Counted from the first letter of the stretch, positions 113-11,101 are shown. The stretch: 11,101 nt of DNA from Deltaproteobacteria bacterium TL4 (GCA_051382335.1 JBBCAX010000444.1:1-11101); one strand, 5' to 3'. A program made the numbers and translations. Notes: generated from the sequence alone by a model not told the origin.

Positions 113-1297
113 ATGAATCAAATGTTCAAAGTCCAGAAAATAATAAAACAAATTAATAAGTCAGAACCTCCATTCTTTAGTGCGGAAAACCTGGAAAACC
201 TCTGGTGTTTTCAGAGTAAAGAAGATAGCAAACTGCTTAAATTTGACTCCAGTATATTGTATTTAATTGATCATCCATCTGAAAACTTGGAAATTCATCA
301 AAGTTTAATAAATCTAGGATTAAAATTTGAAAAAATTGAATGGGTGGTTGCCGATCAAGGATTGCCAACAATCAATACTCAAATCGATAATCTAAAAAAA
401 GCAGATAATCTCGCTGCATTAGAATTGTTGCAACGAATAAAAGAAGGAAATAGACATGATTTTGTTAAGAATCACCTAAAGTTGCTTCCTATCATCGATT
501 TTTTATGTTCTCAGGAAAAAAAGAATCTGTCAGAAGATCTTCAACTGGCTTTTCTCGTTATTACCGCACAAAACAAAGAGAATCGAAGAAACCTTGGAAC
601 TATCTTTTTGAAGAATTCTCCGTTAAACGGTAAAGAATTAACCGTATGGAAGGGGCTATTTCAATCTTTCTTTGCGGAAGTTCATCCTTCTTGCTCAGAG
701 CCTTTACAGCGTTTGTTAAAACACAAACCTTCTCTTCAAAAATGTCTTCATTCTTCAGACTGTCTCTTGGAAATTTTACAATCTAATTCTTATTTGGAAC
801 CCCTTCATCGTGCTCGCTTTAAATTCTCAAAATCTTTTGAAAGGTTGCACCAAATAATTAATAGCAACTTGAAAACAGAAATTACTTCAGAAATAGAAAA
901 AACAGCCAAAATAATTTTGGAAGAAGCAGACCATCGATGGGAAGATTTGACGGACGCATTTCAACTTACAGTCCTCACATTACCGATTCACCGTACATCA
1001 GAGGGAACGTTTATTTCACTAACAGAAATGGAGGGGGACAACCAATCCACAATTGCTGAACGCTTCCAATTACAATCCAGCGATGATTTAAAAGATGCCC
1101 CTATCAGCCTTCCTGAACTCACTCTGCTGCATCCTGATCGGATGATCCGTAACTTTTATCGTGATCATCTAAAAATCACCGTAGAGGGTAGAGTTGAAGT
1201 ACTCAAATCATGTTTGAAACAAATTGGTAAAGATTCATCAAATAATAGTGAACTCTTAGAATATATTGCCAGTATAGTGAAGAACTGGAGAAACTGA
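113..1297 (+). CDS. Hypothetical helical protein (394 aa), probably the N-terminal part of the giant sacsin-like protein, separated by a -1 frameshift near 1252-1294
   Basis: Long ORF with ATG at 113 and an in-frame TGA at 92-94, so it cannot extend upstream. Contains LPIHRTSEGTFISL (980-1021), a motif type that recurs in the next ORF. The next ORF's frame is already open from 1252 and overlaps this ORF's end. Confidence 0.75.
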   Translation: MNQMFKVQKIIKQINKSEPPFFSAENLENLWCFQSKEDSKLLKFDSSILYLIDHPSENLEIHQSLINLGLKFEKIEWVVADQGLPTINTQIDNLKKADNLAALELLQRIKEGNRHDFVKNHLKLLPIIDFLCSQEKKNLSEDLQLAFLVITAQNKENRRNLGTIFLKNSPLNGKELTVWKGLFQSFFAEVHPSCSEPLQRLLKHKPSLQKCLHSSDCLLEILQSNSYLEPLHRARFKFSKSFERLHQIINSNLKTEITSEIEKTAKIILEEADHRWEDLTDAFQLTVLTLPIHRTSEGTFISLTEMEGDNQSTIAERFQLQSSDDLKDAPISLPELTLLHPDRMIRNFYRDHLKITVEGRVEVLKSCLKQIGKDSSNNSELLEYIASIVKNWRN

Positions 1298-1338
1298 AGG
1301 CGGTAGAAGATAATGCCAATCATCATGATGCAGAGGAA

Positions 1339-4300
1339 TTGGTTTCACTACTTGGGGAAGCCAATCTGGTTTTTTGCATTGATGAACAATGGAGAAATCA
1401 AAAGGAATGTTATGACCTAAGGGAAATTGCAATCAATCTGAAAAAACAAGGATGGAAAAATGAAAATTTAAACCAAATGCTAGCGTGGTTGGTGTCGAAT
1501 AATCCTGTATTAACCTTGGATAAAAAATTGACTAAGTCGTTGGATCAGCTTGTTAAACTGAACAACTATGAATCCAACGATATTCCCAAATTGGTGATTA
1601 CAAGTGAAGTTGAAGAGTTTAGCCTTCATCAACGAGTCAAAATTTTGTCAGACAATGAAGCTTCCTGGCCTAGTGAGCCTATTGAAAGATCTGCAGCACT
1701 GGATCAGATTGACTGTCTTTCTTTCTCAGGAATGATTCCTCTATCTGAAGTAGAAATTGTACCATTATTAGAAATGAAGATGGGGCTGGAAATAGGAAAA
1801 GCTTTTTTTCCGAAATGTATTGATCTCAAGGGAGTTTCCAAACAATGGAAACTGGAAGATGATAAGGTTTCCAAGGTCTTAGGCCTCATGGATGTGAAAA
1901 CGTTATCAATTGAGGAAACTCAAGAGCGTATTTTAGACCAATTTGCTCAGGTTTGGGAACAGATCATCACACAAAAAAGATTATCTTTGCTCCGTTTCAT
2001 CAGTCAATGGGAACCGTCAGAAAAACTAACATCACTTCTACAGAATTTGGATGTGGTTTTGGTCAATTTCCCTGATCCAAATTGGGTGTTACCAAAAAAT
2101 ATAATTTCTCCCAAATGGTTTGAGAAAGGAGTTCCTCCAAATATTCCAGATTCCAATCTACCTGTGATTGAAAAGATAGATCCCAAAATAATTGATCTTT
2201 GGAATGAGTGCTGTTCACTGAAGACATTGGAAGAAGTGGTTTGTGAAACATTACATTGGACACAACAAGCACCCAATCCTTCAGTTGCTTGGAAGAAGCT
2301 CGTTGAATGGATTGATCTGATCACTTCAAAGGAGCAGGATACCCAAAAAGCTATTGACTCTCAAGATTTAGTGAATGCTCTTCAAAATAAAAAATGGGTA
2401 CTCACACGTAAAAACGTTGAATTGAGTTTTCAGAAACCTGAAAACGTGATTTTGCATAAAGGAGCAGAAATCCTATCAAGTCAATTTTCAATTGTTGCAG
2501 ATATTTTACCCAAAATAGTAACCAAAAATCCTGAAGAATTTGGCTTTCGAAACAAAATTTTACCTCAAGTTGAGAACATCGAGAAACTTGCTCACTGTCT
2601 AATGCAAAGCTGCAATGCTTCCTCTAATGGAGTTCTTAGTGTTTATGAACTGGTCTGTGATCTCATTGAAGATCGTCAGGATTTGGAAATTGCTTGGAGA
2701 AAATTTTCTGAACAAATGCCTGTGTTTCGATTGTTTCAGGAACCTGACATAGTAATGACTTCTAATGAACTATACCTAGGATCTGAAGACTGCCAGCAAA
2801 ATTTTGGTCACCTGCTCCTCTGTTTGAATGCAGGTAAAGATAAAAAGGGAGAGAATACAATTTCAAAAGCGAGAAAACTTTACCAGAAATTAGGAATTGA
2901 ATCCGATCCTTCTTTGATTCAAATTGTCATGGCATTATCAAAAATTGATGGAAGCGCCAAACAATGGGAAACAACCCATGAACAACTCGCAAATATACTG
3001 ACTCATAAGAAATTTACGAATCTTCCTGAAAGACTTGATCAAATCAGGGTGCTTACATGTTCGGGTGATTATCAACCAATAAAGAGTTGTTACCAGGACG
3101 AAGAGATAGGTTTACCAAACCTTCTTCAAACAGATAGCCAACCTTTCCTTATCCGAAAGTCCGACAATTCATCCAGCAAGATATTAAGATGGTTAAAAGA
3201 ACATTCACCACAACAAATTAATAATTTGAGAGATATCGCAAAAATGGAATTGTTGGGAAAGCCTTTAAAAATTCAAAATTCTTCAGCAATGCAAATTTTC
3301 AATCAATGGATGGATTGGTTTAAACAGTTGAAAAGAGAAGATTCAATAGTGAGTGAAAGACTTTGTGATTTAGGATATAATGTTCCAAGTCAAGAAATCC
3401 AAATAAGCGTAGTGGAAAAAATTGATATCCGGTTCGTTCTCCCAAACAATAATTTTGTTTACCCTTCGGATAAATGGAGAGGACCAGAAATTTATGCAAT
3501 TCCTGGTAATATTTTCATTAGACAAGACCTAATAGAATTCGATTACTTTAGTCAACCAGATCGTCTGGAAAAATTAGATGAAAAAATTGCAGAAGAATTA
3601 CTCCATATTTTTGAATCTTCTGACCAAGAACGTTCACCGGATCAAGTAGGTCTCTTTGGCTTTGTTAAAGAAACATTGGAGCGGCCAGGTGTTGTTATAA
3701 ATCGTCTACGGAAAGAGCGTGAAGACCGGTTTTTTTATCAATATCGTGACCAAGTTCCAGATCATGAATTCTTAAAACTGCATGAAGAATATGATCATAC
3801 TCGTTCTGGTACTGAAAAGCATGAGGAACTGAGATCCAAAATGTTCCAGATTACCAATCAAAATTTTGCATCGTCTCGTCGAGACCAGATTCGAAATTAT
3901 GGTTATGACGAGTATTCCGTTTTTGCCGAATTGGTTCAGAATGCTGAAGATGCATATTCCCAACGAGAAACGATTGGGTTAGAACCCCCTGAAGCAATAA
4001 GCATTACATTTCGATATGAACTGGATCAATCTGGGAAAAAGCTTATTGTTGAACACTTTGGGCGACCTTTCAACTGTTGGCGTCATGGCAATCTTGAAGT
4101 GGATCAGTTTAAACAGGATGTAGAAGGCGTACTCCGCTCTTCAGGAAGTTTTAAAACTCATGCAACTTCGTCAAATCGAGCCATCGGGCGTTTTGGACTC
4201 GGTTTTAAAAGTGTGTTCCTCTTGACAGATCAACCCACAATCCACTCGGCTCCATGGCACTTTACAATTGAAGCAGGTTGCCTTCCCAAGGAGATCTCTG

Positions 4301-6738
4301 CTCCAGATGATCTTCCCAAAGGAGCCACTCGAATCGTTTTGCCTCTACGTGAAAATGTCACTGAGCTTTCAGGTGATGATATTGCATCCCTACTTAATCT
4401 TTTGCCGTTTCTGAGGAAAATTAAGAACTTAAATTTTAAAGGGAATTGTAATCAATCGAATCTGATTATTAATACCAAGAATATTTATGAGAACGATGAA
4501 GGTTTTTTTGTTGAGGATATATTTATCAATGGATGCTCTCACAATAGAGGGGATAAAGTGAATTTTCTTCGGTGTTGTCATACGGAACATAATGGGCAAC
4601 TTGCGTTAAATCTTTCTCCCGAAGGACTTCCTGTTCCATGGGATGAAGCTTTTGATAGAGACTTTTTTGTTATATTACCTCTCAAAGCTAATTTGGGATG
4701 CGGTGTTGCAATATCTCATCTTTTTGAGATTCAATCTGGAAGAACCCATTTAATAGACCATTCGGACAATAATGATAGGATCAAGGACTTAGCTGACCTA
4801 GTTTCAGGATTTGCGGGAGCATTGAAATTTTTAACTATAAGAAATACTATTCAGAAAGTGTTAAACCACTTTTGGTCTTTATGGCGTTGGGACGGAGATT
4901 CAGAATGTTATGACATAAGAAAAGCTTTGGCTGAAAGTTTGGCAAAATTACCATACCATTCAGTTGTTATTCCAACCCTTGATGAAAATATTGCGGCTTC
5001 GTTTGAAAAGAAAATGATTTTCTATTTTTCTCAGAATATCCCCATAGCGTTTTCCAATAAACTTATTAAAGAAACTTTTATACTACTTGATAAAAAAAGA
5101 GAATACAGCCTATCTAATCGAGTAATTGTACCCTATGTTTTTGCCAAAAACTATTTGACAATATGTAAATTTGCAGATTATCCAGAACCAAACTCCTTGA
5201 TCAAAATTTCTTGGGAGAAAATTGGCGAAACTCTCTCCGGTTCCTCTTGGTTTGCTAAATGTCCAGAGTTACTGAATACTCTAGCAGAGGAGCTTTCACC
5301 ACAGCAGGAAGTCAATGTTTTAGGTTGGTTGTCAGAATGTCAAATTCTTGGTCGTGATGGACGAGATAAACCAGTCTACAAATTAGCCAAAGAATTGTTG
5401 ATTCCAAATTTTCCATACAAGGAACTACTACCAGTTCGTTTTCTTGAATGGTTGGATCCTTGCTACAATGATAAGACTACAAATTTGCTTCACGATTTAT
5501 TGAAACAGCCCTCTGTTGAGCATCTTCGTAAGATGTTAAAAAAAGAACTTATATTGAATGAGTGTGAAGACTTTTTGCAATATCTTTTGAAAGCCAAAAT
5601 CTACAGAATTGAAGAATATGACTCCCTCAAGGATGATTTACAAACCAAATGGATTCCTCATCATGGTGGATACATCAGTGTTGCTGAAGCTAAAACAAAG
5701 TCCAATTTTGATAATGATCTGTTTGATAATGTTGAGTTTTGTGCATGGCTTGGTCTTATTGATAAGACACCTGAACCTGAAGTCGATGAACGTGAAAAGT
5801 ATAAACATCCAGAATTTGATCCTACAACATGGTTGGAAAAACTTTATGACTGGTGGAATAATAATGAAAAAGCACAAATACAACTATACGAGAAACGGGT
5901 TTATCCATTAGGTCATCCGTTTAATTTGAAAACCGATTTTCGTTCAAAGGATAGAGAAGCCCGCAAGGAATGGCTCAGCTTATTTCTTCTCGGTTCTTTC
6001 CACACAATGGGACGTGTAAAACCAAGTCAGCACAAAGAATTTATTAATAAGTGTGAAAACAAAGGATGGTTGCAAGTTTTTGCAGAACCAGAATCTGATG
6101 CAAATGATTGGATGAAAATTTTGGACGAATACCTTGATAGTCAAATTGGAAATACATTTTACAATCAATGGGTCAAACAGTTTGTTAGCATTTATCAATT
6201 GGCTAAATGGTTAATAGATTATAGAGACTCTTTTTTAGAAATTGAAAAAAATCAAATGAATTTTTCAATAAATGAGATCACAATTTCTCGTGAAAATCCA
6301 ATACAACAAAGAGGGGGAATTAATGCACCACCGTTGACAAAGACACTTGGAATTGGAACGAATTTCATCATCAGAGAACTTCTTAGGAACAGAGTCATTG
6401 TCCAACCACTTGCCCATAGACACTGTTATGTTCCTGTCGGCCGAGTGAGAGATATTATGAGAGAACTAGGTTGCGATGGACTTGATGATGATCGTGGAGA
6501 AAAAGCTGATCGCTCTCAAATTATTCATAAATTTCTAGTTGGGCATCTTGGTGAGAATAGGGCAATATTTAATCATTCATTTGACCTTCCTTTATTGGCA
6601 GTAGCAGACGGGGATGCACCTAGATGGGATCTTCCCAGTTCTTTCCAAAACAATTACTCCAATAATTCACGAAACGGTGAAAACTGGGTAACTCTTTCTG
6701 ATGGTAGAAAAATACTAATTAAAAATTCTTATTACTAA
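1339..6738 (+). CDS. Giant sacsin-like protein with internal GHKL (HSP90/MutL/MORC-type) ATPase and S5-like module, degenerate repeats and a C-terminal HhH-like helical domain. Start uncertain (frame open from 1252)
   Basis: N-box ELVQNAEDA (3928-3954), HFGRPF (4054-4071), glycine loop GRFGLGFKSVF (4186-4218), GATRIVLPLR (4321-4350) and LPLKANLGCGVAISHLFEIQSGRTHL (4675-4752) follow the order of the sacsin/NOV-type GHKL-S5 signature. The TTG at 1339 has GAGG only 2 nt upstream, which is poor RBS spacing. Confidence 0.88.
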   Translation: MVSLLGEANLVFCIDEQWRNQKECYDLREIAINLKKQGWKNENLNQMLAWLVSNNPVLTLDKKLTKSLDQLVKLNNYESNDIPKLVITSEVEEFSLHQRVKILSDNEASWPSEPIERSAALDQIDCLSFSGMIPLSEVEIVPLLEMKMGLEIGKAFFPKCIDLKGVSKQWKLEDDKVSKVLGLMDVKTLSIEETQERILDQFAQVWEQIITQKRLSLLRFISQWEPSEKLTSLLQNLDVVLVNFPDPNWVLPKNIISPKWFEKGVPPNIPDSNLPVIEKIDPKIIDLWNECCSLKTLEEVVCETLHWTQQAPNPSVAWKKLVEWIDLITSKEQDTQKAIDSQDLVNALQNKKWVLTRKNVELSFQKPENVILHKGAEILSSQFSIVADILPKIVTKNPEEFGFRNKILPQVENIEKLAHCLMQSCNASSNGVLSVYELVCDLIEDRQDLEIAWRKFSEQMPVFRLFQEPDIVMTSNELYLGSEDCQQNFGHLLLCLNAGKDKKGENTISKARKLYQKLGIESDPSLIQIVMALSKIDGSAKQWETTHEQLANILTHKKFTNLPERLDQIRVLTCSGDYQPIKSCYQDEEIGLPNLLQTDSQPFLIRKSDNSSSKILRWLKEHSPQQINNLRDIAKMELLGKPLKIQNSSAMQIFNQWMDWFKQLKREDSIVSERLCDLGYNVPSQEIQISVVEKIDIRFVLPNNNFVYPSDKWRGPEIYAIPGNIFIRQDLIEFDYFSQPDRLEKLDEKIAEELLHIFESSDQERSPDQVGLFGFVKETLERPGVVINRLRKEREDRFFYQYRDQVPDHEFLKLHEEYDHTRSGTEKHEELRSKMFQITNQNFASSRRDQIRNYGYDEYSVFAELVQNAEDAYSQRETIGLEPPEAISITFRYELDQSGKKLIVEHFGRPFNCWRHGNLEVDQFKQDVEGVLRSSGSFKTHATSSNRAIGRFGLGFKSVFLLTDQPTIHSAPWHFTIEAGCLPKEISAPDDLPKGATRIVLPLRENVTELSGDDIASLLNLLPFLRKIKNLNFKGNCNQSNLIINTKNIYENDEGFFVEDIFINGCSHNRGDKVNFLRCCHTEHNGQLALNLSPEGLPVPWDEAFDRDFFVILPLKANLGCGVAISHLFEIQSGRTHLIDHSDNNDRIKDLADLVSGFAGALKFLTIRNTIQKVLNHFWSLWRWDGDSECYDIRKALAESLAKLPYHSVVIPTLDENIAASFEKKMIFYFSQNIPIAFSNKLIKETFILLDKKREYSLSNRVIVPYVFAKNYLTICKFADYPEPNSLIKISWEKIGETLSGSSWFAKCPELLNTLAEELSPQQEVNVLGWLSECQILGRDGRDKPVYKLAKELLIPNFPYKELLPVRFLEWLDPCYNDKTTNLLHDLLKQPSVEHLRKMLKKELILNECEDFLQYLLKAKIYRIEEYDSLKDDLQTKWIPHHGGYISVAEAKTKSNFDNDLFDNVEFCAWLGLIDKTPEPEVDEREKYKHPEFDPTTWLEKLYDWWNNNEKAQIQLYEKRVYPLGHPFNLKTDFRSKDREARKEWLSLFLLGSFHTMGRVKPSQHKEFINKCENKGWLQVFAEPESDANDWMKILDEYLDSQIGNTFYNQWVKQFVSIYQLAKWLIDYRDSFLEIEKNQMNFSINEITISRENPIQQRGGINAPPLTKTLGIGTNFIIRELLRNRVIVQPLAHRHCYVPVGRVRDIMRELGCDGLDDDRGEKADRSQIIHKFLVGHLGENRAIFNHSFDLPLLAVADGDAPRWDLPSSFQNNYSNNSRNGENWVTLSDGRKILIKNSYY

Positions 6739-6784
6739 CAGTAAAGATGATGAACATCCGAATTCAAAAATGGAGTCATTTCTG

Positions 6785-9520
6785 ATGACCACAGACATAA
6801 TTTATTCTCCAGGTGACCATGTCAACAGTGATGTTCATGGTACAGGAACCGTAATTGTTGACAATGGGCAGACAGTTATTGTCCAGTTCGAAGAAAGTAT
6901 CCATGGCTGTGAAAAGTCTACGTTAAACAGACGTATGACTCCACAGCAGGCCATTCACATGGCTGAGTGGCATCGTCCCCTTGAAGTGATAACCAAAATA
7001 CAAGCAGAAACAATCCAATCCATCAATGATGCTTGGGGAATATTTTCGCGGTCTCGCATATCACTCCTTCCTCATCAACTTTGGGTCTGCAGAAAGGTTC
7101 TTGAGATCTGGCCAGCAAGGTGGCTCATTGCCGATGATGTTGGTCTTGGGAAAACAGTTGAGGCTGGACTTATTCTATGGCCTCTTATCGCAAGAAATAA
7201 AGTAAAACGTCTACTGATTCTTTGCCCTGCATCTTTAGCCGAACAATGGCAAATTCGACTCAAGAGCATGTTTGATATCCGTATGACCAGATATACATCC
7301 AACGCAGATACAGAACGCTCTGACTACTGGAATATTCATGATCAAGTGATTGCTTCAATAGAGACACTTCGCAAAGACCATAAGGGAAGACATCGGAGGT
7401 TTCTTGAATGTGAGCCTTGGGATTTGATTATCGTTGATGAGGCTCATCACTTGAATGCGGACGAAAAGATGGTGCCGACTCTGGCTTTTCAGCTCGTGAA
7501 AGAAGTGGTAACTCAGAAGCGTGTCGCATCAATGATATTTCTAACAGGGACTCCTCATCGCGGGAAAAACTTTGGTTTTATCTCCCTTCTAAGCTTACTC
7601 AGGCCTGATCTTTTTGACACTCACTTGACATTGGGAGAACAATTGCCCCATCTCAGTCAAGTTATGATTCGGAATAATAAACAAAATGTTACAGATTTAA
7701 ACGGAAAACTCCTATTCAAAAAACCAATTGTTGACTCAGCGATTTATGCCTATTCTTCAGAGGAAGAGTATTTTTATAATCAGATGACCAACTTTATTGT
7801 GAGTGGTATGGCTTACGCATCATCTCTTTCATCAGCTGAGCAAAGTTCTGTGATATTGGTGTTGATTTCAATACAAAAATTGGCCTCTAGTTCTGTGGCG
7901 GCAATCAAACGTGCTATTAAAGGTCGACTAGCACGAATAGTAACAAGCAGGAGTCGTCTTACTAAAATGGAGCAGGACTATAATGGGTTACAAGAATATA
8001 GTGATGCCGCAAAATTTAACGATCAGGATCGTTTATGTCAGCTTGAAGAATCGATTTCTGAACTATTAGTTGAGCTTCGTTTGATGGAAGACGAAGAGCC
8101 ACGGCTCAAAGAACTTATGACTCTGGCTGAGAATGTCAAAGAAGAAACAAAAATTATTGAGATTATTAAAATTCTGGAAAGCAGATTTTCCGGAAGAAGT
8201 GTTTTGTTTTTCACAGAGTACAAGGCAACTCAATCTTTGCTCATGTCAGCCTTGATGAAAAATTATGGTGATCGCAGCGTAACTTTTATAAATGGGGAAA
8301 ACGAAGCTCGTGAAATTGTCGATAGTTCAGGTAATATTATCACACTCAGAGAAAATAGAGAATCCGCAGTTGAACGTTTCAACTTGGGTGAGGTTCGTTT
8401 TCTTGTTTCTACGGAAGCGGCAGGTGAAGGAATAGATTTGCAGGAAAATTGTTACTCGCTAATTCACGTGGATCTTCCCTGGAATCCTATGAGATTACAT
8501 CAACGGGTGGGTCGGTTGAATAGGCATGGCCAAAAAAAACGTGTTGAAGTTATTACCATTAGAAACCCTCAAACAGTGGAATCTCGGATTTGGGATAAAT
8601 TGAATGAAAAAATCGAAAACATTATGCAAGCAATGAAACATGCGATGGATGATCCCGACGATCTGTTTCAACTTGTTCTCGGCATGACATCTACCTCTTT
8701 TTTTAACGAAATTTTTTCAGAGGGAAGTAAAGTCTCGAAGGATAACTTTTCCGATTGGTTCAACGCAAAAACATCAGAATTTGGAGGAAAAAATATCATT
8801 AATACGGTGCAGGATCTGGTAGGGAATAGTGCTAAATTTGATTTCCAGACAGTTAGTTCTCAGATTCCTCGCGTTGATCTTGAAGACATGAAACCGTTTG
8901 TATTAAGTATGCTCTCTATTAACGGAAAGCGAGTTACTAAAGAAAATGATGTTAACGGAGAGGTGTTAATTACCTTTAAAACTCCTGAGAACTGGTGTAA
9001 TGAGCCTGGTGTTCGGAAAATTTATGAGGAAATGTGCTTCAACAGAAATTATAGAGGCAAAAATGCAACCCAAAGAATACTTGGTGTCGGGCACATGGTT
9101 GTGGATAAAGCAATTGCCCAGGCAAGATCAACATCCGCTTGTCTCATGACTACTGATGGAATCAAAAAACCACATTTTGTTTTTAGAATAACAGATAGAG
9201 TTACGGATACTGGTGGGGCTGTCAGAGCAGTGATTGCTACAGTTGTTGTTTCAAAAGATAGCGTGAATGATTTAGAACTTTTAAAGGATTGGCATCTTTT
9301 AACATTGCTCAACAGCTTGATTGGCCATGGAGGTATTAAAAAAGCTATGGTTTCATTACCCCCAGATAACGTGTTGGAAGTAGATAGTTCCGTTATCATT
9401 GCCTCCAGGTTTTTAGTGAACAGTATGACTGATCTAAAATTGTCATTTCGTGATCCAAAACCAGAATTGATGGCAATTATTTGGCCTGAAACAGTATTTG
9501 ACGGAAGTAAAGACGAGTAA
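6785..9520 (+). CDS. SNF2-family (RapA/HepA-, DrmD-like) SF2 helicase/translocase with N-terminal Tudor-like beta domain
   Basis: Q-motif LLPHQL, Walker A DDVGLGKT (7133-7156), Ia LILCPASLAEQW, II DEAH (7436-7447), III LTGTP, IV VLFFTEY, V STEAAGEGIDLQ, VI DLPWNP..QRVGRLNR (8501-8524). ATG 6785 is preferred to 6770 because GGAG (6772-6775) lies 9 nt upstream of it. Confidence 0.95.
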   Translation: MTTDIIYSPGDHVNSDVHGTGTVIVDNGQTVIVQFEESIHGCEKSTLNRRMTPQQAIHMAEWHRPLEVITKIQAETIQSINDAWGIFSRSRISLLPHQLWVCRKVLEIWPARWLIADDVGLGKTVEAGLILWPLIARNKVKRLLILCPASLAEQWQIRLKSMFDIRMTRYTSNADTERSDYWNIHDQVIASIETLRKDHKGRHRRFLECEPWDLIIVDEAHHLNADEKMVPTLAFQLVKEVVTQKRVASMIFLTGTPHRGKNFGFISLLSLLRPDLFDTHLTLGEQLPHLSQVMIRNNKQNVTDLNGKLLFKKPIVDSAIYAYSSEEEYFYNQMTNFIVSGMAYASSLSSAEQSSVILVLISIQKLASSSVAAIKRAIKGRLARIVTSRSRLTKMEQDYNGLQEYSDAAKFNDQDRLCQLEESISELLVELRLMEDEEPRLKELMTLAENVKEETKIIEIIKILESRFSGRSVLFFTEYKATQSLLMSALMKNYGDRSVTFINGENEAREIVDSSGNIITLRENRESAVERFNLGEVRFLVSTEAAGEGIDLQENCYSLIHVDLPWNPMRLHQRVGRLNRHGQKKRVEVITIRNPQTVESRIWDKLNEKIENIMQAMKHAMDDPDDLFQLVLGMTSTSFFNEIFSEGSKVSKDNFSDWFNAKTSEFGGKNIINTVQDLVGNSAKFDFQTVSSQIPRVDLEDMKPFVLSMLSINGKRVTKENDVNGEVLITFKTPENWCNEPGVRKIYEEMCFNRNYRGKNATQRILGVGHMVVDKAIAQARSTSACLMTTDGIKKPHFVFRITDRVTDTGGAVRAVIATVVVSKDSVNDLELLKDWHLLTLLNSLIGHGGIKKAMVSLPPDNVLEVDSSVIIASRFLVNSMTDLKLSFRDPKPELMAIIWPETVFDGSKDE

Positions 9521-9546: not shown

Positions 9547-10272
9547 ATGCAACGTAATGAGTGGAACCAGCAAGTTAAAGCTCTCGCTGAAGAGGCTGAT
9601 ATTGAAATAACACAAAATCAGTTAGATCAATATTACAAGGAAGACTTGAGTCCAGAAGGCGCATTAGTCAGGATGATTCAATTCTCTGGAAACAGTGAAG
9701 AACAAATAGTATCTACAGAAATCACTGCTGAGAATTTTAACCAGATTATGTCTGGGTTGGAAGAGGAGTTAAAACGATTCAATAACCATTTGACAATTAC
9801 AGTAGGAGGAAGTTTACCTCTTATTTTGCGGGATACCATTAGTCGTTCAGGATCAGAGGATATTGATGTGGCTAAAAGTTCAGTAACTCCTTCGGAAATT
9901 GAGAGGGTTATAAAAGCAGTACAAGAACAATTTCAAAAAGATAATTGGCTCGATTTTAGTTTTCGTGGTTTGTTTTCCAAAAGAGCGGCGAAGGTTTCAA
10001 CTGATACAGCCCTCTATGAATCGGAACATCTCGTTGTTCTTCCACTGGATCCCTATCAGATTCTAACTTTAAAATTGTTGATTCGTGAAGACAAGCGTAG
10101 AGCTAGAGATTATGGGGATATTCGTGATCTTTTAAAATATGTTCAGGAGAAAGATCATTTAGAGAGTCGTGGAGCTTTTCTGAGACAGTTGAAGCCCTAT
10201 TGCAAAAATGAGTATAAAGGATTACTGGATAAAAATCTCAGGGACATGTATAATAAGTACATTACCAAGTGA
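9547..10272 (+). CDS. Pol-beta-superfamily nucleotidyltransferase, DUF6036/AbiEii(MenT)-like putative toxin, with a ~55 aa N-terminal extension
   Basis: ITVGGS (GGS at 9805-9813), then SxDxD (SEDID, 9853-9867), then C-terminal K (10072) ... RxRDxxD (RARDYGD, ending 10119). This is the AbiEii/DUF6036 motif order. SD AAGGA lies 6 nt before the ATG. Confidence 0.8.
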   Translation: MQRNEWNQQVKALAEEADIEITQNQLDQYYKEDLSPEGALVRMIQFSGNSEEQIVSTEITAENFNQIMSGLEEELKRFNNHLTITVGGSLPLILRDTISRSGSEDIDVAKSSVTPSEIERVIKAVQEQFQKDNWLDFSFRGLFSKRAAKVSTDTALYESEHLVVLPLDPYQILTLKLLIREDKRRARDYGDIRDLLKYVQEKDHLESRGAFLRQLKPYCKNEYKGLLDKNLRDMYNKYITK

Positions 10273-10297
10273 GTATTTACATAGACAGAGCACGACA

Positions 10298-10717
10298 ATG
10301 GGAACCATTATTAAATCGACACCAATTGAAAATTGGACATTTGAAACATTCTTCCGAGAAGTATTACTGACTTATACCGCTCAGGATTTGGATTCGAATA
10401 AAGATGCTATGTTGACCAATTATGTGATGCGACTCTGGGATTCCAACTTTCTATTGAAAGATATTCCGTTTCTTAAGAATTTAAATGGTTGGGAACTCAA
10501 GATTGCTGCAGGGTTGGTTGAACAACTTGGCGAAATGTGGAAAGACAAAGGTCGAAACGAAATACTACCTTCATGGATATCTGAAGTTCCTCCCGTTGAA
10601 AACAGTGTGACTTTGATCCCGAATAGTTATCGACCTGATGTGAATGAATCCGGATATTCTAAGGTCCTATTAAAAAGGAATATTGTTGCCGTTGGAGGAA
10701 TGTTTGGATTTGCTTAG
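10298..10717 (+). CDS. Small partner protein (139 aa) of the nucleotidyltransferase, putative antitoxin
   Basis: IAAGLVEQL (10502-10528), LPSW (10565-10576) and KRNI (10673-10684) resemble the AAxxExLxxxxPxW...F.xRxI pattern I recall from proteins encoded next to DUF6036 genes. ATG 10298 is preferred because ATG 10208 would overlap the upstream gene by 65 nt. Confidence 0.65.
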   Translation: MGTIIKSTPIENWTFETFFREVLLTYTAQDLDSNKDAMLTNYVMRLWDSNFLLKDIPFLKNLNGWELKIAAGLVEQLGEMWKDKGRNEILPSWISEVPPVENSVTLIPNSYRPDVNESGYSKVLLKRNIVAVGGMFGFA

Positions 10718-10877: not shown

Positions 10878-11099
10878 TCATGAGAACGCCCCTGAAATTT
10901 GAATTGGTATCGTCAAAAACCAATCCCGAATAATGAGCTGATCCTGTCCGCTGTCAATCTCACCTTCAAGGCTAGAAATTTGAAGCACCAAATGGTTTTT
11001 ATACCTTAAAAATTGTAAGGCTTCCTGCTTGATTCCAAGTCCCAATTGCAGGGTGTCTTTTCCATAAACGTCTTCAATGAAGTCCGTTCCGTCTCCGCG
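10878..11099 (-). CDS. 3' end (partial, runs off the window) of an RTX/haemolysin-type calcium-binding protein with an HCBP-related domain, possibly truncated
   Basis: Manual minus-strand translation: RGDGTDFIEDVYGKDTLQLGLGIKQEALQFLRYKNHLVLQISSLEGEIDSGQDQLIIRDWFLTIPIQISGAFS*. The pattern GDGxDxIxD..GxDTLxxGxGI....LxFxR...LVL......DxLxIxDWF is characteristic of type I-secreted Ca-binding proteins. Missing from the ORF track because its start is outside the window. Confidence 0.8.
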   Translation of the reverse strand, partial: RGDGTDFIEDVYGKDTLQLGLGIKQEALQFLRYKNHLVLQISSLEGEIDSGQDQLIIRDWFLTIPIQISGAFS

Positions 11100-11101
11100 A
11101 T

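Follow-up and report, generated by a model that had tools for sequence, protein, structure and literature searches.

The two-gene cassette described here, found in a contig of Deltaproteobacteria bacterium TL4, is likely a variant of the defence modules that combine a GHL ATPase with a helicase. An association of GHKL ATPases with SF2 helicases in restriction-like systems was proposed in 2008 by Iyer, Abhiman and Aravind, in the part of that article accessible to us (PMC2292703). In the accessible part of a 2026 preprint, helicases, Swi/Snf included, are the commonest conserved neighbours of Tiamat-like proteins and cooperation between helicase and ATPase is proposed (10.64898/2026.09.30.754977); the general idea of sacsin/Tiamat-like GHL ATPases with neighbouring helicases is therefore already present there. 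The stretch of DNA that we analysed (the window) is the entire 11,101-nt contig (JBBCAX010000444.1, C444 below) of a 6.59-Mb assembly in 445 contigs. It carries, one behind the other, the remnant of a gene for a giant sacsin-like GHKL protein and an intact gene for an SNF2 ATPase. We lean, if only slightly, towards reading the window as a decayed copy of a conserved cassette that likely provides nuclease-free defence against foreign DNA. The pair has no name in PADLOC v2, NCBIfam or Pfam, and literature searches, with figures and bioRxiv supplements outside their reach, returned no paper describing it. The words "glycosylase", "RapA" and "two GHL" do not occur in the main text of the Tiamat-like preprint as accessible, its figures and supplements lying outside view, and "SNF2", "helicase" and "glycosylase" do not occur in the NO VEIN preprint.

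ORF calling gives five open reading frames (ORFs) in the window, all on the + strand, and a genome search places repeated sequence at both ends of the contig. Three of the ORFs make up the pair:

113-1297, + strand: P0001, 394 aa, first piece of the giant gene
1339-6738, + strand: P0002, 1,799 aa, second piece of the giant gene, in a frame open from 1252
6770-9520, + strand: P0003, 916 aa, the SNF2 protein, an intact RapA-like/DrmD-like SNF2 ATPase

A preliminary description of this DNA, made from the sequence alone, had pointed to two large co-oriented genes 31-46 nt apart, with no terminator between them. Both genes are indeed present on the + strand, the giant's stop codon is 31 nt from the SNF2 ATG, and none of the four terminator-like sites in the window falls between the two genes (shuffles expect 7.4 in the window, so there are fewer than expected). 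The SNF2 gene was also correctly described as having all of its motifs intact: GLGKT, DEAHH, TGTP and QRVGRLNRHGQ are found, together with Pfam SNF2-rel_dom and Helicase_C. For the 11.1 kb in view, Pfam and PADLOC likewise bear out the statement that no methylase, DrmA/B, ZorA/B or nuclease domain is encoded in the window ORFs. The picture of the giant gene is the part that changes. It had been presented as a ~2,200-aa protein with one GHKL module, and is instead a remnant of a gene whose full-length relatives are ~2,700-2,840 aa long and carry two such modules. Repairing the frameshift would not yield a whole protein, because the first ~590 codons are gone as well.

The relatives that define these lesions came from a search of 5.8 billion proteins, in which 231 of 7,999 scored candidates had E <= 0.001. 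Full-length members are mostly ~2,750-2,830 aa (family range ~2,700-2,840 aa), and the closest of them, P0008 (2,811 aa), was used as the reference. Measured against it, the 5' part of the window reads as follows:

1-136, no strand assigned: right-hand part of a ~198-nt element resembling a miniature inverted-repeat transposable element (MITE), containing the ATG at 113
137-1270, + strand: segment A of the giant gene, ~residues 594-980 of full-length relatives
1271-1272, + strand: frame break, one base short relative to homologues, reading continuing in the -1 frame
1273-6738, + strand: segment B, with the middle region, second GHKL module and C-terminal domain

Residues 9-386 of P0001 align with residues 594-980 of P0008 at 35% identity (E 2e-70), and segment B aligns with residues 983-2809 at 42% identity over 1,848 columns. 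Frame A meets a stop at 1297, by which point frame B has been open since 1252; the likeness to P0008 extends to residue 980 in the former and resumes at residue 983 in the latter. Since similarity to the relatives runs on at both sides, the break at 1271-1272, which is not within a homopolymer run, looks like a single lost base. At the 5' end, homology of the giant gene to its relatives begins exactly at nt 137. Window positions 1 to ~140 recur at 39 further places in the genome with 93-100% identity, and blastn gives 74 matches to the repeat element across the genome, of which 25 span nearly all of it. Aligning copies with their flanks (L003, L007, L008) shows that the contig opens 58 nt into the element, which extends to window position 136. 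The ATG at 113 thus lies within a repeat that recurs genome-wide, from which it follows that ~590 residues are missing at the N-terminus, the first GHKL module (GHKL1) among them. GHKL1 was not found elsewhere in the 6.59-Mb assembly with either whole P0008 or its first 593 residues, the 600 N-terminal residues of 48 full-length relatives match the assembly only inside C444, and the sole match of Pfam SACS in the assembly is the second module (GHKL2) of the window. The giant gene here is therefore a remnant, truncated at its 5' end at a MITE-like repeat and carrying a one-base frame break. With the first ATPase head missing and the frame broken, this copy of the giant/SNF2 pair is probably inactive.

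The element itself shows several further features. Many contigs start or stop within it. In one copy (L008) it lies between ORFs at 979-1482 and 1695-2216, which are maybe halves of one gene, and one reading frame at its left end gives ...LDFEQFAQYYS-stop, terminating the interrupted ORFs.

Outside this contig, the pair is conserved. A single-sequence query returned no relative, and an alignment query run against one genome per species returned 79 loci. In seventeen of these the alignment reaches past the GHKL motifs; one of the seventeen ends inside the giant gene, leaving 16 that can be checked; the 62 loci matching GHKL motifs alone were left out of the study. A P0003 orthologue (41-72% identity) lies directly 3' of the giant in 15 of the 16. 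The plasmids add to this: six records cover at least 80% of P0003, and each of the three inspected has the SNF2 gene preceded by a giant homologue, here from a second, Gimesia-like subfamily of ~2,400-2,600 aa. The question raised in the preliminary description, whether an SNF2 gene consistently follows the giant, can therefore be answered in the affirmative. The second gene, which encodes a ~900-aa SNF2 ATPase, often overlaps the first, its start lying between -17 and +98 nt of the giant stop (tblastn coordinates being used for L052 and the partial loci). The exception (L019, 10001-17668) is a second decayed copy, with the giant broken into three ORF pieces and lacking both the 3' end of that gene and the SNF2 gene; a ParB-methylase gene and one for a phage terminase lie upstream of it.

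The loci are spread over Acidobacteriota, Verrucomicrobiota/Kiritimatiellae, Nitrospira, Planctomycetes (Kuenenia included), Geobacteraceae, Cloacimonadota and Gammaproteobacteria, and the SNF2 gene occurs in none of 87 other genomes of the window's own phylum at E <= 1e-100. A search of a phage collection with P0003 gave no match at E <= 1e-30. Together, these observations support the giant and SNF2 genes as a conserved, horizontally spread two-gene cassette. A short form is present at two loci (L037:9926-16096 and L061:9914-16020), where a protein of ~1,130-1,160 aa with one GHKL module and the same tail is encoded ahead of the SNF2 gene; this form is perhaps the minimal version of the cassette and would be easier to study. 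The GHKL part of this short form is Tiamat-like, in that TmtA models match it up to ~position 585. Among the 62 loci with GHKL motifs only, seven show a weak partial SNF2 match on the upstream side of the GHKL gene; these are probably GHKL-helicase pairs of another kind.

In its relatives the giant consists of an N-terminal sacsin-type GHKL module, a middle region of ~1,200 aa, an Hsp90-like GHKL module with transducer, and a conserved C-terminal domain. GHKL1 of the relatives matches Pfam SACS at E ~1e-50 and sacsin SR1 crystal structures at E 8e-34. Two of the domains could be placed on the window:

3841-5220, + strand: GHKL2 and Hsp90-like middle (transducer) domain, with ELVQNAEDAY and GRFGLGFKSV, from Pfam SACS and fold matches
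5815-6651, + strand: C-terminal helical domain (the tail), predicted HhH-GPD (DNA glycosylase) fold, model residues 664-942

In P0002, Pfam SACS matches residues 852-971, NCBIfam returns P_loop_sacsin (the sacsin ATP-binding domain), and the PADLOC TmtA models cover residues 843-1157. The AlphaFold2 model built for P0002 residues 830-1799 has a mean predicted local distance difference test score (pLDDT) of 83.9. Its first ~460 residues resemble the N-terminal and middle domains of the Hsp90 family, with TRAP1 aligned over residues 10-465 (Foldseek E 8e-8), HtpG at Z 13.9 and sacsin SR1 (5v44) at Z 12.9; MORC (Z 10.5), TopoVI-B and MutL score below Hsp90 and sacsin.

These matches set the giant beside three described groups. 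With Tiamat (TmtA) it shares the sacsin-type GHL head, to which the TmtA models are confined, and with Tiamat-like proteins more broadly a large helical middle region and a defence-island context. Unlike Tiamat, it has two GHKL modules in one chain and no Pfam match to DUF3684 or to NOV_C/PD-(D/E)xK (DUF3883). Neither the window protein nor any of four full-length relatives matches DUF3684 at E <= 1, and NOV_C has no Pfam match in the window protein, the relatives or the tails; a language-model look-up returned DUF3684/DUF8348 clusters at 0.91-0.96, which we take as a lead only. Tiamat is, moreover, a single-gene system with a nuclease C-terminus, whereas the cassette combines a predicted glycosylase-fold tail with an obligatory, nuclease-free RapA-like SNF2 partner. 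The MORC and paraMORC operons, in the accessible part of their description, also encode a GHKL-plus-transducer ATPase together with a SWI2/SNF2 helicase, are sporadic and laterally mobile, and have been proposed to loop or clamp DNA in restriction-like systems (PMC2292703). The cassette heads are nearer to Hsp90/sacsin (Z 12.9-13.9 vs 10.5 for MORC), the giant is a two-headed chain, and, unlike in those operons, no HNH/EcoRII-type nuclease or methylase is conserved with it. Eukaryotic sacsin resembles the giant in having repeated Hsp90-like SRR modules in one giant chain, as the matches of the relatives' GHKL1 to SR1 and of the window's GHKL2 to 5v44 reflect. It differs in that the giant has no detected UbL, DnaJ or HEPN domain, is bacterial, is encoded in an operon with an SNF2 motor and carries the predicted glycosylase-fold tail.

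The tail is predicted to resemble HhH-GPD DNA glycosylases at the level of fold. Of the 50 rows of the structure search, 21 span model residues 661-959, and each of these is an HhH-GPD-type enzyme. The Ogg of Thermotoga (3n0u) aligns over 197 of 209 residues with Z 11.7 and a root-mean-square deviation of 3.6, EndoIII (2abk) gives Z 9.7, and the further matches are Qng1, MagIII, AGOG, MutY, NTHL1, Mag1, OGG1, AlkA and ROS1. That every row covering the tail belongs to one superfamily, and that nearly the whole enzyme is covered, argues in favour of a true relationship. The tail family alignment contains an LGIG hairpin between two predicted helices and has H76, R190/E191 and D260 (numbering of alignment A6) among its invariant residues. 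Pfam PF00730 gives no match in the tail. In a mapping made by eye, with no structural superposition behind it, C/N, small or aromatic residues stand where EndoIII has K120 and D138, and from these substitutions we infer that the catalytic Lys and Asp have been lost. The domain is also the best conserved part of the giant: identity between the two giant subfamilies is 38-41% in the tail vs 26-34% in the GHKL regions. Its family comprises 961 representative clusters at E <= 0.001, and in 149 of the best 150 it forms the extreme C-terminus.

Sacsin ends in a HEPN domain, and a conserved GR-x5-H motif in the tail alignment suggested an HEPN RNase. This candidate was rejected, as none of the 21 tail-covering rows is HEPN and Pfam is blank. 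The preliminary description had singled out the C-terminal domain (at 5824-6610); its predicted glycosylase fold suggests a DNA-reading part, which had not been foreseen there. A precedent is offered by the END nucleases, in which, according to the accessible part of their description, an inactive EndoIII/Ogg sensor is fused to PLD, NucS-like or McrB-like modules and the EndoIII domain is proposed to sense hypermodified phage DNA, setting specificity (PMC12191111). As in those proteins, to the extent that they are described there, the giant would have a glycosylase-fold domain without glycosylase signature at the C-terminus of a defence-island protein. Unlike in END nucleases, no nuclease is present in either cassette protein or conserved nearby, the partners being GHKL ATPases and an SNF2 motor.

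The SNF2 protein was divided as follows:

6818-6934, + strand: N-terminal small beta-barrel
~7049-8644, + strand: SNF2 core
~8657-9487, + strand: family-specific C-terminal domain

RapA is the RNA-polymerase-associated SNF2 ATPase of E. coli, and P0003 is predicted to have the RapA architecture end to end. The AlphaFold model of P0003 (pLDDT 83.6, predicted template modelling score 0.76) matches E. coli RapA at E 3e-29, far ahead of the next SNF2 protein (1e-16). RapA 8t0l_F aligns over 750 residues with Z 19.8 (model 7-910 vs chain 2-967), and RapA alone among the matches spans the N-terminal barrel and the C-terminal domain, other SNF2 structures covering residues 83-689. The predicted barrel, core and C-terminal domain are thus shared with RapA (PDB 6bog, 8t0l). 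The differences lie elsewhere: identity is 16-19%, the NCBIfam RapA model (PRK04914) scores 153.2 bits vs a cut-off of 576, so that P0003 does not qualify as a RapA orthologue, and the P0003 family is sporadic, mobile and paired with a giant rather than a core gene. Nor is P0003 a ZorD of Zorya type I, as NF041790 scores 48.2 bits vs a cut-off of 1500, PADLOC ZorD matches are partial (69-77 bits), and ZorA and ZorB are absent from the window.

The class 1 DISARM system was reportedly defined by Ofir et al. in 2018. Like DISARM DrmD, P0003 is an SNF2 ATPase of ~900 aa, and one PADLOC DrmD model (PDLC02634) matches it end to end, over residues 9-906, with 1055.9 bits. The NCBIfam DrmD equivalogs are not reached: NF038317 gives 290 bits (cut-off 610) and NF038318 gives 164.6 (cut-off 950). 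One plasmid copy of the three inspected adjoins drmA, a DUF1998 gene and drmC. Set against these likenesses, DrmA, DrmB and DrmMI are absent from the window and from the flanks of 12 relatives (for the N6-adenine methylase DrmMI, the five ORFs of the 11.1-kb contig are what the window offers), and the conserved partner is a giant GHKL protein that is no DISARM component. The claim of the preliminary description that the pair fits no named system thus holds for the databases, in which it is unnamed, and is weakened by the DrmD match and the copy beside DISARM genes. On the basis of this 1055.9-bit match and the neighbours on Trichormus variabilis plasmid C, the cassette does not appear fully separate from DISARM.

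The flanks of 12 loci were scanned over 102 of the 160 ORFs called, the giants, SNF2 genes and outermost flanks being left out, and sixteen proteins were additionally scanned with PADLOC. The neighbours at seven of these loci and on the three plasmids are:

L013: Qat genes (KAP NTPase, QatC, TatD)
L015: DUF1156 and DUF499 genes, then a SIR2-pAgo fusion
L020: Hma-like trio, PLD-helicase pair, JetD
L022: type I restriction-modification (R-M) and GmrSD
L024: BREX (BrxA, DUF6079, PglX, PglZ)
L018: WYL-WCX regulator, SspB-like gene
L021: integrase
Trichormus variabilis ATCC 29413 plasmid C (L114, record 262319-289012): divergently oriented C5-methylase, drmC, DUF1998 gene and drmA adjoining
Deinococcus wulumuqiensis NEB 479 pDrdI: cassette, then a NucS-domain gene and type I M and S genes
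Sphingomonas pC33: cassette amid IS3, HEPN and WYL genes

Such neighbourhoods are typical of genes that reside in defence islands, and the cassette may be among these. A check for a defence-island setting had been proposed beforehand; named systems do stand beside several loci, and only about half of the 12 flank sets hold one. On the plasmid of T. variabilis, where the locus is DISARM-like, the giant is annotated as two ORFs (828 and 1,853 aa) before the SNF2 gene. The pAgo fusion of the Nitrospira locus (L015:6796-9987) is 1,063 aa long, is of the SIR2-APAZ type, scores 1223 bits with PADLOC pAgo and lies directly upstream of the cassette. The only DUF1998/MZB match in the window's own genome (L112, contig C184:5179-5463) is in an open frame of 1,733 aa, possibly a DrmB-like protein or a helicase fusion of a separate system.

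Downstream of the SNF2 gene, the window holds two small ORFs:

9547-10272, + strand: P0004, a small ORF 26 nt 3' of the SNF2 gene
10208-10717, + strand: P0005, a small ORF

P0004 has no relative in the 5.8-billion-protein search and a sub-threshold match (E 6e-4, under the cut-off) to the DUF6036 nucleotidyltransferase family; P0005 has no match in Pfam, NCBIfam or PADLOC. Both were considered as components of the system and rejected, since they are conserved in none of the related loci. The last 190 nt of the window (10912-11101) are 96% identical to a stretch within an ORF of >1,060 aa on another contig (C90, L002), so C444 terminates in a second repeated sequence.

How likely, then, is a defence function of the pair's own? 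The alternative that survives best, although we hold it to be unlikely, is that the pair is an accessory to nearby methylation-based systems (DISARM, type I R-M, BREX, Hma), which would draw on it for a motor of DrmD type and for a clamp that reads DNA. In PADLOC the SNF2 family falls under DrmD over its full length, the T. variabilis cassette is 0.5 kb from the C5-methylase, drmC, DUF1998 and drmA genes, the pDrdI cassette has the NucS-domain protein and the M and S genes of type I behind it, and at L022 and L024 type I R-M or BREX genes lie directly upstream in the same orientation. However, the neighbours vary by locus and no partner is conserved. DUF1998 (DrmB) is found in none of the 102 flank ORFs of the 12 loci, the only match in the window's own genome is on a different contig, and the NCBIfam DrmD scores are far below their cut-offs.

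That the cassette serves transcription or DNA repair, as a housekeeping or stress function in which a RapA-like polymerase recycler works beside a chaperone-like, repair-like giant, is quite improbable in our estimation. It would account for RapA being the sole solved structure that aligns over the two terminal domains in addition to the core, for the predicted repair-glycosylase fold of the tail, for the chaperone nature of Hsp90 and sacsin, and for the lack of a detected nuclease or toxin domain. It does not sit well with a distribution so patchy that none of 87 genomes of the phylum has the gene, with plasmid-borne copies, with neighbours that include integrase, insertion sequence and defence genes, or with a RapA score (153 bits) far under its cut-off, and the decay seen here and in L019 fits a dispensable accessory gene.

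Several observations nevertheless weigh against reading the window as a decayed copy of a likely defence cassette. No effector has been identified in the cassette. The end-to-end likeness to RapA could equally mean a housekeeping role in transcription. The flanks of L012, L016, L037 and L061 are ambiguous or blank, and a clearly named defence system is present in only about half of the 12 flank sets. For the tail, Z scores of 9-12 are within the range in which helical domains may match by chance, Pfam (PF00730 included) finds nothing in nine tails even at E <= 10, hhalign of the tail against eight genuine EndoIII proteins gives a probability of 0.1, and a PDB profile search of the tail has a best E of only 1.2. 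As to the lesions, the missing 5' piece may sit on an unassembled or unbinned short contig, the frame break may be an assembly error, and there is no further decay outside the two lesions: 1,828 and 400 codons are open there, with no in-frame stops, and family-invariant residues are retained in both genes. Even so, that the copy is in fact whole and working, the break being an assembly error and the 5' third lying just past the contig end, is very unlikely, for while the otherwise clean genes and a contig that breaks within a repeat, as is typical of assemblers, speak in its favour, even a plain insertion of the ~198-nt element would split the gene after codon ~593, three different queries find no GHKL1-coding DNA in 6.59 Mb, and the frame break is outside any homopolymer run. 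On the comparisons of sequence and gene context set out above, a defence function of the cassette remains likely.

How such a nuclease-free defence would work is a matter in which we have much less confidence. By analogy with Hsp90, MutL and MORC, the giant might close through its GHKL heads as an ATP-gated clamp. The glycosylase-fold tail could then recognise bases or lesions in DNA and leave the strand uncut, in the manner proposed for the inactive EndoIII domain of END nucleases, and the RapA-like motor would translocate along the marked DNA, where it might strip RNA polymerase or replication proteins or pass the DNA to nucleases encoded elsewhere. In its boldest form, which we regard as doubtful, this would be an undescribed, non-cutting immunity in which a two-headed sacsin-type clamp senses foreign or hypermodified bases through a disarmed glycosylase fold and a RapA-type motor, of a kind acting on RNA polymerase, evicts the transcription or replication machinery from the DNA so marked.

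The copy in the window mainly illustrates how the cassette decays, through MITE insertion and frameshift. Apparently whole plasmid copies are found in two cultured strains, D. wulumuqiensis NEB 479 (pDrdI, DVJ83_RS16315 to DVJ83_RS16320) and T. variabilis ATCC 29413 (plasmid C); the Geobacteraceae locus L018 likewise holds an intact copy. If the intact cassette defends cells, it would add a nuclease-free, two-ATPase mode to bacterial immunity. Should the proposed reading be true, it would also be a second case, after the END nucleases, of a repair-glycosylase fold reused to read foreign DNA, and the repeated Hsp90-like units of human sacsin would gain a model in bacteria. In the event that the non-cutting immunity outlined above is true, those repeated units would descend from a bacterial DNA-surveillance machine.

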